The notes beneath the pieces were generated by a model. The model did not search any database. It was not told the DNA's origin and saw nothing but the letters and a program-made list of their open reading frames with translations. DNA of 34,438 nucleotides from Planctomycetota bacterium (GTDB lineage Bacteria; Planctomycetota; GCA-002687715; DRQF01). The stretch covers positions 1 to 34,438 of the forward strand of contig JALTLO010000174.1 of the NCBI GenBank assembly GCA_027001995.1. The letters are read 5' to 3'. The translations under genes were made by a program, and so were the position numbers. How positions within the stretch are numbered: the first letter of the stretch is position 1; each line of letters opens with the position of its first letter. Below, piece by piece: positions 16-22,750 of the stretch.

Positions 16-105
16 TGGCGGAGAGACAGGGATTCGAACCCTGGGTACCCTTTCGAGTACACACGCTTTCCAAGCGTGCTCGTTCGACCACTCCGACATC
101 TCTCC
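16..105 (-). tRNA. tRNA-Ser(GGA), CCA encoded
   Basis: Reverse complement folds as a class II tRNA: GGAGAGA/TCTCTCC acceptor stem, anticodon arm CACGC-TTGGAAA-GCGTG, long variable arm, GGTTCGAATCC T-arm, G discriminator and CCA. Confidence 0.97.
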
Positions 106-108
106 AAG

Positions 109-195
109 CGGAGGGACAGGGATTCGAACCCTGGGTACCCTTGCGAGTACACCGGTTTTCGAAACCGGCCCGTTCGACCACTCCGGCATCCCTCC
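109..195 (-). tRNA. tRNA-Ser(CGA), CCA not encoded
   Basis: GGAGGGA/TCCCTCC acceptor stem, anticodon arm CCGGT-TTCGAAA-ACCGG, long variable arm, T-arm; G discriminator followed by CTT. Confidence 0.97.
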
Positions 196-375: not shown

Positions 376-867
376 CTAGGTTTCCCGCCTAGAACGGAAG
401 AAATCCTGAAGAATCCCTCCGCATTCTTCCTTCAGGATCGAGTGAACCACTTCAACATGGTGATTCAGACGATCGTGTTGGGCGATATTGAGAACGGAAC
501 CACAACCACCGGCCCGGCGGTCGTCAACACCAAACACAACCCTTTTCATCCGCGCATTGACCAAGGCCCCAGCGCACATCGGACAAGGTTCCAAGGTCAC
601 GTAGAGAGTAGCCCCAACCAGTCGCCAATTCTCTAATTCCGCCGCAGCTTGGGTGATGGCAATCATTTCCGCATGGGCCGTTGGGTCATTGAGAGTTTCC
701 CGTTGATTGTGGCCTCGCCCAATAATCTTGCCATTCTTGACTATAACGGCCCCCACAGGTACTTCACCTTCTTCCAAAGCGTAAGATGCCTCTTTCAAAG
801 CAATCCGCATGAAAGCATCATGGTTCACGATTGGTGAAAACTGGATCTCATCGTCGAAATCAGGCAT
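376..867 (-). CDS. tadA: tRNA adenosine(34) deaminase
   Basis: EVPVGAVIV, HNQRE, TAHAE and LEPCPMC motifs. Start trimmed from the 317-aa ORF to ATG 867; GTG 828 or ATG 810 are alternatives. Confidence 0.95.
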   Translation of the reverse strand: MPDFDDEIQFSPIVNHDAFMRIALKEASYALEEGEVPVGAVIVKNGKIIGRGHNQRETLNDPTAHAEMIAITQAAAELENWRLVGATLYVTLEPCPMCAGALVNARMKRVVFGVDDRRAGGCGSVLNIAQHDRLNHHVEVVHSILKEECGGILQDFFRSRRET

Positions 868-985
868 CTTGGTTTGTCCTATCCGCCCCGAAATCAGTTG
901 GGGTCGATGGTCATCGATCAGTAACTTAGTTTCGAACCTTTGGTCGAAGCCTATTGTGGCAGAAATTGTGTGTTGGAGAAAATCC

Positions 986-1195
986 ATGATCGGGCCAGAA
1001 AAAATCCTTTTGGGCATTCTTTCGACTCTCCTGGCAATCACCCTGGGGCTTCTCATTCTTGAAGTCGACATGGAGACCACAAGACGGGTCGCCATTGGCG
1101 TCTGCATCGCCCTCGTCATTCTTCTGGGGATCGGAGTCATCTTTCCTGTCCGTCGGTACTTAAAGCAGCAAAAAGCCCTCAAGGAAAGAGAATAG
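986..1195 (+). CDS. Small two-TM membrane protein (69 aa)
   Basis: GGAGA RBS before ATG 986, two hydrophobic helices, basic C-terminus; its TAG directly abuts the next ATG. Confidence 0.7.
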   Translation: MIGPEKILLGILSTLLAITLGLLILEVDMETTRRVAIGVCIALVILLGIGVIFPVRRYLKQQKALKERE

Positions 1196-3640
1196 ATGAC
1201 CGCACTACGGTCGCTACTTCTTTTCTTCTGCTTCCTCAGCACCACCTCTTTCAGCCAAGAGCAAGAAGTCGTTGCCCAGGACATCATCTTGGTGGGTGGG
1301 CGCTCCCCCTTCGCTGAAGCTGAGGGCATTCAAGCAGGCATTTTCCTCCGGCAAACGACGCAGATTTACCGCACGCAGGGTCTTTGCTTAGTTGATGGAA
1401 ACAACACCAAGATCCCAGCTCACTTCGAAGTTCTTTCCCGACGGGCTGGCCTCATCTCAGATACCAGCGCCCCCATCGACTGGATCGAAGTTTCCTTTCC
1501 CCTAAACACAAGTTCCAAATTCCCGTTCAAGATAATCCAGAGCAAAGCTCCTGAAGGCCATATTCAAGTCACCCAAGAAAAGGATGTGACAACTGTTCTT
1601 TGGAATGGTCACCAATTATCATTCGACCGATCAAAACCCGCTCTACTTCGCTCAATCAAGAAAGGCTCTGAGGATCTTTTGGCTGCACCAGCCTTAGAAC
1701 TTTTCTACACCAACGAAAAAGAAGTCGAAGGCCAAGTGAGCCCATGGCAGTTCAAAATCGAAAAATTGAGTTCCCTTCAATTTACCTTCTTGGTTAGCAC
1801 TCAAGTTGATGGCCTTATTTTTGAAATGCGACTCAGGTTTATCTCCGGGGCGGCGGAGATCGCTGTCGATTTTCGCTTGGTGAACCCCGGCCCCTATGGA
1901 CACATGGCCACAAAAGAATCCCACGTTTGGTTTGACCGACTGAGTCTTAGCTTGCCGCGCCTCGTGGGCTCTACGACCGTATCCACATCAAGAAACTCCT
2001 ACCCTGCCCAAGGATTCGCATTGCTCCAAGACCATAGAGCGCCCTACAAGAAAAACCAACCGGCTGAGTCTTCCCGCTTTCAGATCTGGGCAGACGGCGC
2101 GGCAAAGTCACAGGGAGTTCGTCACCATGGCTGCTTTGCCTTAGGCAACAGCAAGAGAAGTTTCTCCTACGGTTTCGTCGATTTCTGGGAAAACGCTCCC
2201 AAGGCTTGGAGCGTCCAAGAAAGCGTCGTTCTCTGCGACATTTTTCCGGCCGGTGGGAGCGGGCCCCACTTTCGTGGACGATACGGTTTGCCCAACAAAG
2301 GGGAGCTCGATCCAAAATCGAAGAACAATTATCGTTTCGAAGGAGCGAGAGCCAAGAGCCATCGGTTGTTCATGAACATCAGCGGCCAAAGTCCCCATGA
2401 AGCGGCCATGCGCACCCGGGCGATCACGAGAAAGCCCCTTCATGTAACAGTTAGACCTGAAGCCATGGCTGGACGAGATCTCCTGGGCTACTTGATAACC
2501 CCACGGTCCTATTCCAAGTCATCCGACGCTCAAAGATTCGACCGGTTTTCTCAGCTCATGGTGGATGACCAAGCGGCAGACAACCAACCTGGTTTAGGGA
2601 AAATTGGTTATCCAGAATTCATCGCCCGGGGTGGCACCTATGGGCGGAGCGTCTTTTACGGTTGGTTCAATTTTGGCGATATTCCTTGGGGTGACGGCTA
2701 TTGCTCCCTTCACTACGACCTGCCATTTTCGATGCTATTTCAGTTTCTTAGAAGCGGCGACCCGCGCTTTTTGACCTTGGGACAGTCAATGGCAAAGCAC
2801 AGGCGGGACATCGATCAAGATCATGACCGAGACTCCCCCATCAATCGTCGCGGAGGTCAGTTCTATGAGAAAGGTTGGTGGCATGGAAACTACTACCACC
2901 CCATTGAATCTCACACTTGGGTCAAAGGTCCTTTGCTCCATTATCTCATTACCGGCGATCTTTGGTCCTTGGAAGCGGCTTTGCTCAACCGCGATTTCAT
3001 TCGGCGAAATCATCCCGACAAATGGAATGGCAATTGGGGAACTCGTATCCCCGGATGGAACATTGACAACTTAGTAGCCCTCTTTGAAGTCTTGGGACAC
3101 CAAGAAGATCTGAAGATGGCCAAAGGAACTATTGCTCGTTGGCAAACTCTCGAAACAAAGCGACATGGGAAGATGGGTTATTTGGATAACATTCAGATGA
3201 AACCCGTGTCCTGGAAACCATGGATGCACAACATTTTCTTCAATGCCGTTGCCATGTATCGCTTGAAGTCAAATGACAAGCAATTCGACCCTCTCTTGGA
3301 CCGTATGGCGAAACGATTCAGAACTGCCGTGCTCAAAAAGTCCCCTGGGGGCCCATGGATGGCGGCTAGAAACATGGTGCAAGGACGAAGAGACCGCCCC
3401 AGTGTTCAACTACTTTGGCCCATGGCGGCGAGCTTTTCCCTATTAGGGAGGATCCATAAGCGTCCGGCTGACATTCAGCTGGCCCGAAGCCTATTTCACG
3501 ATGCTCTTGTTTTCTTTCAAGGAAAACAGGGTTCACCCCTGGCCTTCCGCATCATGCAATTTCCCAATTCTGAATCAAAAATTCATAGTGGAATTCAACT
3601 GTGGGGCCTTCATGCTCTTCCACATTCACTCGATCCATAG
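1196..3640 (+). CDS. Secreted YetA/PcRGLX-like (PL26 exo-rhamnogalacturonan lyase-like) protein
   Basis: Signal peptide, beta-rich N-terminal half, DFWENAPK, and a C-terminal helical-toroid pattern GWFNFGD...YD...QFLRSGD...H..DID..H typical of this family. Substrate unknown. Confidence 0.65.
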   Translation: MTALRSLLLFFCFLSTTSFSQEQEVVAQDIILVGGRSPFAEAEGIQAGIFLRQTTQIYRTQGLCLVDGNNTKIPAHFEVLSRRAGLISDTSAPIDWIEVSFPLNTSSKFPFKIIQSKAPEGHIQVTQEKDVTTVLWNGHQLSFDRSKPALLRSIKKGSEDLLAAPALELFYTNEKEVEGQVSPWQFKIEKLSSLQFTFLVSTQVDGLIFEMRLRFISGAAEIAVDFRLVNPGPYGHMATKESHVWFDRLSLSLPRLVGSTTVSTSRNSYPAQGFALLQDHRAPYKKNQPAESSRFQIWADGAAKSQGVRHHGCFALGNSKRSFSYGFVDFWENAPKAWSVQESVVLCDIFPAGGSGPHFRGRYGLPNKGELDPKSKNNYRFEGARAKSHRLFMNISGQSPHEAAMRTRAITRKPLHVTVRPEAMAGRDLLGYLITPRSYSKSSDAQRFDRFSQLMVDDQAADNQPGLGKIGYPEFIARGGTYGRSVFYGWFNFGDIPWGDGYCSLHYDLPFSMLFQFLRSGDPRFLTLGQSMAKHRRDIDQDHDRDSPINRRGGQFYEKGWWHGNYYHPIESHTWVKGPLLHYLITGDLWSLEAALLNRDFIRRNHPDKWNGNWGTRIPGWNIDNLVALFEVLGHQEDLKMAKGTIARWQTLETKRHGKMGYLDNIQMKPVSWKPWMHNIFFNAVAMYRLKSNDKQFDPLLDRMAKRFRTAVLKKSPGGPWMAARNMVQGRRDRPSVQLLWPMAASFSLLGRIHKRPADIQLARSLFHDALVFFQGKQGSPLAFRIMQFPNSESKIHSGIQLWGLHALPHSLDP

Positions 3641-20490: not shown

Positions 20491-21162
20491 ATGAAACGCG
20501 TCCTTGAAGCCGAATACATGGATGACAAGCAAGAATCCAATGACTACGACGCCATGGATCACAGCTTGCCCAATGGCGCCTTCGTCGATCGTCTGATGGA
20601 GTTGGGTGCCAGCGGGACCATGCTCGACCTAGGGTGTGGCCCAGGGCACATCCCCCCGATGATTGTCGACCGCTCTCCCACGTCGCGGATTATTGGCTTA
20701 GATGCGGCCGCCACCATGTTAGAAATTGCCGAAAGCCACCGTCTCTCTTGTTCGGCGCCAGAGCGAATCACTTATCAATTGGCCGATGCCAAAGCTCTTC
20801 CCTTCTCGGACAATAGTTTCGACGTTGTCATGAGCAACACCGTCTTGCACCACATTCCAGACCCTATACCATTCTTGGAAGAAGCCAATCGCGTACTAAA
20901 AGCGAAGGGTGTGCTGTTGATTCGGGATTTATTTCGTCCCGATAACATGACCATGGTCGAACACTTGGTCCAGCTCCACGCATCTGGAGAGAACCCTGAG
21001 CAGCAAGCTCTTTTCCACGCCAGTCTCTGTGCCGCCTTAACGCCGGAGGAACTTCATTTGCTCGCGGAAAAAGCCGGAATCGGAGGTTTCGAAATCGTCC
21101 GAGATTCCGATCGGCACATGTCCCTCCAAAGAGCGGCAATCCAACCTGATTCAGCGCGGTGA
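20491..21162 (+). CDS. Class I SAM-dependent methyltransferase
   Basis: GGGAG RBS, LDLGCGPG, GLD, DAKALPF..FDVVMSNTVLHH; N-terminal RVLEAEYMD..YDAMD. Confidence 0.9.
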   Translation: MKRVLEAEYMDDKQESNDYDAMDHSLPNGAFVDRLMELGASGTMLDLGCGPGHIPPMIVDRSPTSRIIGLDAAATMLEIAESHRLSCSAPERITYQLADAKALPFSDNSFDVVMSNTVLHHIPDPIPFLEEANRVLKAKGVLLIRDLFRPDNMTMVEHLVQLHASGENPEQQALFHASLCAALTPEELHLLAEKAGIGGFEIVRDSDRHMSLQRAAIQPDSAR

Positions 21163-21227
21163 TTCCACTGGGGAGCGGCCTCAGAGTGATAAATCAGGTG
21201 GGTTCCCCCCGAATAGGGAGCAGAAAT

Positions 21228-21266
21228 AAAAAAAGGCGGACCAACGGGAGGATGTCGGTCCGCCTT
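21228..21266 (-). terminator. Rho-independent terminator, minus orientation
   Basis: AAGGCGGACCGAC-ATCCTCCC-GTTGGTCCGCCTT followed by further T residues on the minus strand. Confidence 0.8.
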
Positions 21267-21350
21267 ACCAAGGCGACTATGGCCGGTATCAGGCGTAGTT
21301 GGAAGAGGTGGGTGTGTCCCCGCGCAAGCACGGGAACGAACCACAGCCGC
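21228..21350 (-). ncRNA. Candidate structured small RNA (5' end uncertain)
   Basis: 12-bp helix (21350-21339 with 21284-21273), 9-bp G(CUUG)C hairpin (21337-21316), C-rich linker, and a 13-bp terminator with a U tail. All non-Watson-Crick pairs are G-U on the minus strand. Confidence 0.55.
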
Positions 21351-21446
21351 AAATGGCAACCAGTTCATAAGGCTCCCAAAGGTACCCTCCGTTTCTCCCC
21401 CAAGCGGGACGAAAATCGAGGAAACCCAAGAAGTCACGATTTCGGG

Positions 21447-21475
21447 TTGAAGCGAAGGCCCAGTGGAAATATCTT
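21447..21475 (+). promoter_or_regulatory. sigma70-type promoter of tRNA-Met
   Basis: TTGAAG (21447-21452), N17, TATCTT (21470-21475), GC-rich discriminator GGGCCTCC; same -35 hexamer as the tRNA-Ser promoter. Confidence 0.65.
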
Positions 21476-21520
21476 GGGCCTCCTCATTGAAGCGACATTT
21501 CTTGAGGAAACTGGCTACAA

Positions 21521-21594
21521 GGCGGCGTAGCTCAGCTGGTTAGAGCGGAGGATTCATAAGCCTCAGGTCACTGGTTCAAGTCCAGTCGCCGCTA
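21521..21594 (+). tRNA. tRNA-Met(CAT), elongator type, CCA not encoded
   Basis: GGCGGCG/CGCCGCT-A acceptor, TAGCTCAG..GGTTAGAGC D-arm, TTCATAA loop, GGTTCAAGTCC T-arm. No C1 mismatch or three consecutive G-C anticodon pairs, so not the initiator; Ile2 is less likely. Confidence 0.93.
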
Positions 21595-21603
21595 CTCAGA
21601 AAG

Positions 21604-21632
21604 AAAACTCGGCCTTACGGCCGAGTTTTTTT
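21604..21632. terminator. Intrinsic terminator, possibly bidirectional, between tRNA-Met and aroF
   Basis: AAAACTCGGCC-TTAC-GGCCGAGTTTTTTT. Confidence 0.88.
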
Positions 21633-21709
21633 GTGCCCACGGGATCCACAACTCAGAGGCCATTGGGGCCCCGTTCTTGGCTCTACAGCCCCAATCATTG
21701 AGTTCTGAG

Positions 21710-22750
21710 TCAGGCTTGAGCAACGGACGTCATGGGCCCAGGGAGGCTACGGCCCATAATCTGGACAATGGGGGCCAACTCTTTCATCAGCTGCCCAAAT
21801 TCCTCCAGAGAAAGAGATTGCCGACCGTCCGAAAGAGCCAATTCTGGCCGTGGATGAATTTCTATCATCAGACCATCGGCACCAACGGCCACAGCGGCCT
21901 TGGACATGGGCCCAACGAGCTCAGAAAGCCCTGTACCGTGGCTGGGATCGACAATGACCGGAAGATGGGTCAATTGCTTGAGAAGGGCAACAGCCGCCAA
22001 ATCCAGGGTATTTCGCATGCGCGGCTCAAATGATCGAATGCCCCGCTCGCAGAGAACAATGTTCTCATTCCCCCGCATGAATATGTATTCAGCAGCACCC
22101 AAAAACTCGTCTACGGTAGACATCAAGCCACGTTTGAGAAGAACCGGAGTTTGGGTTCGCCCAATGGCTTCCAAGAGCCGAAAATTTTGCACATTGCGAG
22201 ACCCCACCTGGAGCATATCTGCGGACTGAGCCACTAAGGGGACTTCTTCCGGTGACATGACCTCGGTCACAACCATAAGCCCAGAGTTCTTGCCTGCGGT
22301 GGCCAAGTAGTCCAAACCCGTGGAGCCTAAGCCCTGAAAGGCATAGGGCGATGTGCGGGGCTTAAAGGCCCCACCTCGAAGACCCACGGCCCCGGACTCT
22401 TTGGCGCTTTGGGCAATTGACTGGAGTTGCTCCAACCCCTCGACGCTACATGGCCCGGCAATCACCGGGAATTGGCCACCGCCGAAGCTCACCTGGCCCA
22501 CAGAAACCGCCCGGGTGCCTTCGTTTCCGGATTTCCCGATCATGCCCCACGGGCCAGTCATCACCACCACACGGCTGACCTCCGGGCAGGTTTCAAACCT
22601 TTCCACCAGAGAATCCCCACCACGAAAGCTCAAGACCCGGCATCCATCACCGCGTTTGACGACGTTTTCAAGCACACCCTGAGTCCCGGCCAAGCTCGTT
22701 AGAGCCTCAACCACGGCTTCATCGGATGTTTTTGTGACCACCACAATCAT
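21710..22750 (-). CDS. aroF: 3-deoxy-7-phosphoheptulonate (DAHP) synthase, type I-beta with N-terminal regulatory domain
   Basis: IAGPCSVE, RGGAFKPRTSPYAFQG, QVGSRN, LLKRG, LCERGIRSF, VDPSH, EIHP and SDGRQ; MIVV-type N-terminal extension. Confidence 0.95.
   Translation of the reverse strand: MIVVVTKTSDEAVVEALTSLAGTQGVLENVVKRGDGCRVLSFRGGDSLVERFETCPEVSRVVVMTGPWGMIGKSGNEGTRAVSVGQVSFGGGQFPVIAGPCSVEGLEQLQSIAQSAKESGAVGLRGGAFKPRTSPYAFQGLGSTGLDYLATAGKNSGLMVVTEVMSPEEVPLVAQSADMLQVGSRNVQNFRLLEAIGRTQTPVLLKRGLMSTVDEFLGAAEYIFMRGNENIVLCERGIRSFEPRMRNTLDLAAVALLKQLTHLPVIVDPSHGTGLSELVGPMSKAAVAVGADGLMIEIHPRPELALSDGRQSLSLEEFGQLMKELAPIVQIMGRSLPGPMTSVAQA

Follow-up and report, generated by a model that had tools for sequence, protein, structure and literature searches.

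We conclude that a 34,438-nucleotide contig of a Planctomycetota bacterium (JALTLO010000174.1 of assembly GCA_027001995.1; the whole stretch analyzed is called the window here) carries an element best explained as a divergent representative of a small non-coding RNA family that is conserved and multi-copy. The element lies on the minus strand, facing tRNA-Met, and we have high confidence that it is a real RNA gene. Elements taken to be homologous were found opposite tRNA-Met in other genomes of the same order (tRNA-linked copies) and at other loci (siblings). The hosts are bacteria, probably planctomycetes; the closest named relative (66%) of a methyltransferase encoded beside the element is on a Planctomycetota contig. 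The genome from which the window comes is called G000.

A predicted small RNA gene opposite tRNA-Met

The features at and around the element are as follows.

20491..21162, plus strand: class I SAM methyltransferase gene, convergent with the small RNA and not a fixed neighbor
21228..21373, minus strand: predicted small RNA of ~146 nt, its 5′ end placed from the −10 box
21228..21266, minus strand: intrinsic-terminator-like hairpin and U tail
21273..21284, minus strand: closing helix P1, 3′ strand
21286..21312, minus strand: unpaired C/U-rich loop, whose end is CUACGCCUGA (21298-21289), common to the sibling RNAs
21316..21337, minus strand: inner hairpin P2 with a CUUG loop, its length and loop differing among orthologues
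21339..21350, minus strand: closing helix P1, 5′ strand
21379..21386, minus strand: putative −10 box GGTACCTT, of which GGTA..T is invariant across six family members and also found in G011
21447..21475, plus strand: putative sigma-70-type promoter of tRNA-Met (TTGAAG, 17 nt, TATCTT), found by eye and divergent from the small RNA
21521..21595, plus strand: tRNA-Met(CAT), head-to-head with the small RNA
21710..22750, minus strand: DAHP synthase gene, ending beyond tRNA-Met

A first-pass annotation of the window had described three helices, the last a terminator, and refolding confirmed all of them. On the minus strand, the outer helix P1 joins 21350-21339 to 21284-21273 (12 pairs, 4 of them G-U), P2 occupies 21337-21316 (9 pairs, 2 G-U), and the terminator hairpin spans 21266-21233 (13 pairs, 1 G-U) with the loop AUCCUCCC, followed by the U tail. 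All seven non-Watson-Crick pairs are thus G-U on this strand, as the annotation had said. The minus-strand fold of 21228-21350 has an energy of −54.9 kcal/mol (z, −4.89), and none of 200 shuffled sequences folded as well; for the plus strand the z value is −2.62, with 3 of 200 shuffles as good. The loop is predicted to be unpaired (mean, 0.85). Among the homologues, the plus strand has the lower folding energy in 11 of 14, so that energy alone is no guide to the strand there, and we assigned the strand from the U tails, the G-U pairs, and the −10-like box upstream.

The hairpin is the sole terminator-like site within 21000-21800, and no minus-strand gene is available to own it, since the DAHP synthase gene ends at 21710, on the far side of tRNA-Met (21521-21595); on this point too the annotation was right. 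The GGTA..T box lies upstream in seven genomes, which puts the probable RNA start near 21373. No −35 box was seen ahead of the small RNA, and the −10-like box was absent from the output of a consensus promoter scan. In two other families, the upstream element resembles the sigma-28 consensus. As far as can be read from the sequence alone, the element has a promoter and a terminator of its own, independent of its neighbors, and the small RNA is likely to be transcribed from that promoter opposite tRNA-Met. Two reading frames overlap the element; neither gave a Pfam match. Between the methyltransferase stop codon and the terminator (21163-21227) is a G/C-rich stretch that may fold on the plus strand and is absent in G001. 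Elsewhere in the window, a tandem tRNA-Ser(GGA)/tRNA-Ser(CGA) pair, 86% alike (16-195, minus strand), lies directly downstream of a gene (376-1329, minus strand) whose product has a long N-terminal part and, at the C terminus, a domain of the TadA/cytidine-deaminase type.

The annotation had proposed a search of Rfam and had read the element as a stand-alone structured RNA other than the signal recognition particle (SRP) RNA, 6S RNA, tmRNA, or RNase P RNA. That reading holds: no model matched, and the genes for these RNAs are located elsewhere, in G000 or in its relatives. With Rfam 15 at the gathering threshold, only tRNAs were found in the window, in 20 tRNA-Met loci, and in 20 sibling loci, and no family matched the copies from outside the order or those with further loop types. 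No existing Rfam family therefore covers the window RNA, for which the best subthreshold match was ar14 (RF02344; 21.4 bits against 58.8). SRP RNA was rejected because RF00169 and RF01854 gave no match and SRP RNA is found elsewhere in 21 of 23 genomes, including carriers of the element; it was not found in G000, probably owing to an assembly gap. There was likewise no match to 6S RNA (RF00013) and no pair of long helices around a central bubble, and 13 of 23 genomes have 6S-like matches at different loci. These 6S-like RNAs (L049-L053 and eight more genomes; none found in G000) are 175 to 220 nt long and fall just under the Rfam cutoff. For tmRNA (tRNA-like ends, tag frame) and RNase P RNA (RF00010), both genes are on other G000 contigs. 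A Y RNA was rejected because Ro60/TROVE was found in none of five genomes (88 to 93% complete), and a CsrA-sequestering RNA because csrA was found in none of the five and the loop has no GGA.

Orthologues and sibling copies

We compared tRNA-Met loci from 20 genomes of the order, at first by eye. The whole element lies opposite tRNA-Met in 14 of them; of the other loci, one has a partial copy at a contig end, one is on a contig that is too short, and in four the element was not seen. No tRNA-linked copy was seen in G004, G006, G015, or G020. In an alignment of six genomes from the window's own family, 90.5% of positions expected to pair do so, 9 of 25 pairs show double changes, and none of 500 shuffles equaled this, although these kin are not independent and the structure was derived from the same sequences. 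When applied to two further families, a model built from the six genomes recovered the syntenic element in six of their genomes (E, 3e-5 to 8e-4 in 41 kb); it scored G011 at an E of 0.066 and missed G014, which a second model scored at an E of 0.004. An alignment of 12 sequences, fitted to the model, has double changes in 22 of 25 pairs. Collecting the related intergenic regions, as the annotation had suggested, thus showed conservation in 14 genomes, with helices that covary beyond all 500 shuffles.

What is conserved in sequence among the tRNA-linked copies is the open loop, ending in C(U/G)ACGCCUGA; the stems vary. The window loop is nearly identical in G000, G001, G002, and G005: over 24 nt, it is the same in three genomes and one base different in a second genus. 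In G014 and G016 the loop has drifted. Two features that had been put forward as central did not hold up in this comparison. The anti-Shine-Dalgarno-like terminator loop is not the key feature, with CCUCCC in only 4 of 14 orthologues and the conserved part being the internal loop, and the CUUG tetraloop is present only in G000 and G001. Near the RNA 5′ end in G001 and G002 (L002 and L003) there is a second GCCUGAAAAAC, which resembles the loop end. In a distant family, another structured stretch faces tRNA-Met (L029 of G026, about 1130-1330, minus strand); it contains CCCGCCUGAG and was scored neither by our models nor by Rfam. Terminator hairpins at unrelated gene ends (L083 in G002, L082 in G011, and L084 in G005) have the arm GGCGG.CCGAC/CCGTC in common with the window terminator.

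The second model, trained solely on tRNA-linked copies, also matched other loci in G003, G009, and G000 (53, 40, and 34 bits); the annotation had overlooked these siblings. A pattern drawn from those loci was found in all 23 genomes of the order and in 1 of 378 others; a reversed control pattern was found in 5 of 401. Of the 23 genomes, 22 contain the exact 20-mer loop block TCCTTCCTCTCTACGCCTGA, with a total of 33 copies; the order's four available 16S genes are 75 to 92% identical. Three of the copies are in G000:

G000:C34:18513-18673, plus strand: sibling RNA gene, between a divergent sigma-factor gene and a gene for a hexapeptide-repeat (LpxA-like) acyltransferase
G000:C49:32102-32246, minus strand: sibling RNA gene
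G000:C84:54924-55069, minus strand: sibling RNA gene

Two sibling copies in G008 likewise adjoin divergent sigma-factor genes. In an alignment of 20 siblings, the shared parts are GGUUGUGU, a short hairpin, a stretch rich in A, and a block of 24 nt; the search pattern itself had selected 20 nt of this block. The siblings show covariation in the closing helix (91.6% paired, 42 double-change cells, 0 of 500 shuffles), the structure register having been fitted after inspection of the data. In the scaffold, a closing helix of 12 to 13 bp encloses a small hairpin and a long C/U-rich loop that is unpaired, and a terminator follows; the helix junction of most siblings reads GGUUGUG...CACGUAAAA. Across the family the loops are conserved in sequence and predicted to be unpaired (0.70 to 0.85). 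Genomes carry one to six copies, and a block of 25 to 26 nt is identical between genomes of different families. When G000 was compared with 1.99 Mb of G014, which gave 89 exact matches outside called genes and found no 16S end in G000, this block was exceeded only by the tmRNA end and two tRNA stretches. Besides the commonest loop, three or more loop types are found repeatedly in different genomes; on the same scaffold, one type is common to G012 and G010 (L389 and L383) and another to G012 and G014 (L388 and L228:5527). The family thus has multiple copies, taken to be homologous, that conserve a CU-rich region free of pairing, as in anti-Shine-Dalgarno sibling RNAs of the LhrC/RsaE kind.

Outside the order, the sibling model matched 9 of 144 genomes. 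Seven of these, from five families, have P1, GGUUG, a short hairpin ending in C(A/G)CGUAAA, a pyrimidine-rich loop, and CCUUGG; their loops differ, and in three (G150, G134, and G043) the scaffold faces tRNA-Met. One of the other two matches lies inside a coding frame and one is partial. The model had no match in five near-complete genomes from four further families. The phylum searches scored only 20 to 23 candidates in each genome, which makes the numbers for genomes beyond the order lower bounds. A pattern scan of metagenomes gave 19 stretches, 1 of them a true homologue (L060) and 18 judged to be chance matches; viral contigs and plasmids gave none. We dropped L035 and the G038 match as lying inside coding frames, the G303 match as chance-like, L132 and L133 as gene 3′ ends, and L082-L084 and L088 as terminator-only matches; the G183 match is partial.

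We infer that the tRNA-linked copies and the other siblings share ancestry. Because the sibling model fails on the window copy, homology rests on matches to the tRNA-linked model, covariation, the position at tRNA-Met, and the shared 10-nt motif. It seems improbable to us that the window RNA is instead a genuine small RNA not homologous to the other siblings, its 10-nt motif and layout being convergent, or a decaying paralogue. Such an origin would fit the failure of the commonest sibling's model to score the window copy at an E of 0.5 or better, a profile search with the tRNA-linked alignment that reached siblings at an E of only 3.6 to 3.7, the loci at which no copy was seen and those with drifted loops, and the lack of a GUAAAA junction in the window copy. 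However, the tRNA-linked copies of G012, G014, and G018 keep a sibling-like ACACG(C/U)A and so look like intermediate forms, in the three genomes from outside the order it is the full scaffold that faces tRNA-Met, ten bases are common to the window copy and the siblings at the same position, and the window-type loop is itself preserved across two genera. Equally slight, in our view, is the chance that the elements are cis-acting leaders (riboswitches or attenuators), short peptide genes, or mere terminators with a DNA-level motif. Many siblings do have a same-strand gene 100 to 200 nt downstream of the loop, some are without a clear U tail, and several have an AUG within the P1 5′ strand. Against this, the flanking genes of siblings are unrelated and in either orientation, the next gene being convergent in G000, G001, and G002, and we rejected a riboswitch or attenuator because the elements are not consistently upstream of same-strand, functionally related genes. 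A small peptide was rejected because the core block is found in each of the three frames and, of 33 copies examined, 14 lack an AUG near enough to serve as its start. A covarying P1 with G-U pairs also argues for RNA.

Candidate modes of action

Our leading reading, held tentatively, is that the family members are trans-acting sibling small RNAs that pair with purine-rich ribosome-binding sites without Hfq. The window RNA would be made from its own promoter opposite tRNA-Met, its closing helix would keep the loop accessible and shield the RNA ends, and the open C/U-rich loop would pair in trans, probably Hfq-free, with purine-rich ribosome-binding sites, damping translation. The different, separately conserved loops of the siblings would then serve different target sets. 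We prefer this reading because the loops are open, conserved in sequence, and of separately conserved types, like those of LhrC. Start sites in G000 have an AG-rich Shine-Dalgarno (SD) sequence. In a test of start regions over coding windows, for which starts were chosen for having an SD sequence, the commonest sibling loop scored −3.08 kcal/mol, against −2.01 ± 0.40 for its shuffles, none of 12 being as good; the window loop showed no preference for start regions over its own shuffles (6 of 12). SD pairing by C-rich segments, suggested by the annotation, is a candidate mechanism: the commonest sibling loop has a general preference for SD-bearing starts, and neither the window loop nor the search for a conserved target adds support. 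Hfq was found in none of five genomes; as CsrA was not found either, the RNA would pair unaided or use a partner protein.

Comparative target searches gave no result above chance. For 499 orthologue pairs of G000 and G014, the top score for a start region did not leave the range of the shuffles; no complement of at least 8 nt was common to the members of any of 1,040 gene pairs, and 211 short-frame pairs gave nothing. These comparisons covered two genomes, one of them 86% complete and 84% covered (1.99 of about 2.37 Mb of G014), with simple gene calls and crude energies, so the negatives only weaken the pairing reading. With the commonest sibling loop, the leader of nrdJ (B12-dependent ribonucleotide reductase; G000:C77:9636, plus strand, and L281 in G014) ranked top in both orthologue scans but within the shuffled range, which makes it no more than a lead. 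Several individual candidates were rejected. The window loop has a 17-nt complement within the coding region of alaS; 15 nt of this complement are kept in G001, and it is broken at synonymous sites in G002. The seed TCAGGCG occurs in 3 of roughly 55 flagellin leaders listed and in 1 of 20 leaders of trypsin-like proteases, at sites that are not conserved. A scan of the order for seed, SD sequence, and ATG together gave no recurring target. Complementarity to rRNA, tRNA, and tmRNA reached at most 10 nt and was mostly no better than in shuffles; in 2 of 10 duplex tests, no more than 3 of 100 shuffles did as well, a result without repeat in other genomes. Flagellin-domain matches number two to six per genome in 22 of 23 genomes (L143-L199), and many flagellin leaders have a CGATA element similar to that which, in two families, lies upstream of the tRNA-linked RNA.

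Since the comparative target searches did no better than shuffles, a protein-binding alternative comes close, and we regard it as possible, if doubtful. The RNAs would be decoys or scaffolds in which the junction and the pyrimidine tract titrate an RNA-binding protein. Csr/Rsm RNAs bind CsrA. Consistent with protein binding, distant families have the scaffold in common and loops that agree in composition but not in sequence, CUACGCCUGA is duplicated in tandem in G003 and G007, and no mRNA target emerged from the searches. On the other hand, neither CsrA nor Ro60/TROVE was found in any of the five genomes, the window copy has retained its loop without the GUAAAA junction, and several separately conserved loop types are accounted for more simply by different pairing partners. 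A precedent is Rli31 (PMC4959528), which has a long 5′ hairpin, an open C-rich apical loop, and then a terminator, binds SpoVG in vitro, and offers that binding as an alternative to regulation by pairing, which complementarity need not imply. The family described here differs from Rli31 in having no sequence match to it and in being multi-copy; SpoVG was matched in only three of the five genomes and not found in the other two. G000 has four SpoVG-like matches (L360, L362, C91, and C16), one of them above the cutoff.

A rather unlikely arrangement is a system of constant handles and variable guides in these Hfq-less planctomycetes. The junction would dock one protein, and each pyrimidine loop would guide it to different RNAs; the locus facing tRNA-Met would be ancestral, and the window copy would be derived, with the handle partly lost.

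Known systems and the planctomycete context

The leading reading, pairing with ribosome-binding sites, has its nearest parallel in LhrC1-5 of Listeria, whose CU-rich loops act on AG-rich SD regions. LhrC1-5 (PMC5880928) share with this family several near-identical copies per genome, single-stranded CU-rich regions, and AG-rich SD sequences as natural partners; LhrC has three CU-rich regions, whereas here there is a single long loop that one helix closes, with a conserved junction. LhrC belongs to a different phylum, and neither Rfam nor sequence comparison matched it to the family. The cuckoo RNAs (ar14/RSs0680, RF02344; PMC4615179) similarly have anti-SD-like C-rich loops, variable stems, and multiple copies. 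They consist of two to four adjacent hairpins, each with CCUCCUCCC; we rejected membership because that motif is absent here and the layout, a single closed loop, differs. IhtA of Chlamydia is also a PVC-group small RNA that lies beside a tRNA gene and acts through an open loop, but that gene is tRNA-Thr, IhtA has three stem-loops, and it pairs with the first 6 nt of hctA (PMC3469542). An IhtA-type target was rejected, as no leader of a lysine-rich frame stood out among the AUG-started frames of G000. The resemblance to 6S and Y RNAs, a closed helix with a large open region, is one of outline only, with no model match.

Literature searches, for which the supplements of large motif surveys were outside the scope, returned no description of this RNA family, and the main text of PMC8632094 does not mention planctomycetes. 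We conclude that this is a new small RNA family that, by analogy, may work like LhrC, the cuckoo RNAs, or Rli31 and is a member of none of them. Little has been published on the regulatory RNAs of Planctomycetota. The family is ready for an Rfam-type model, and finding its partner protein or its targets would give an entry to posttranscriptional control in a poorly studied phylum.
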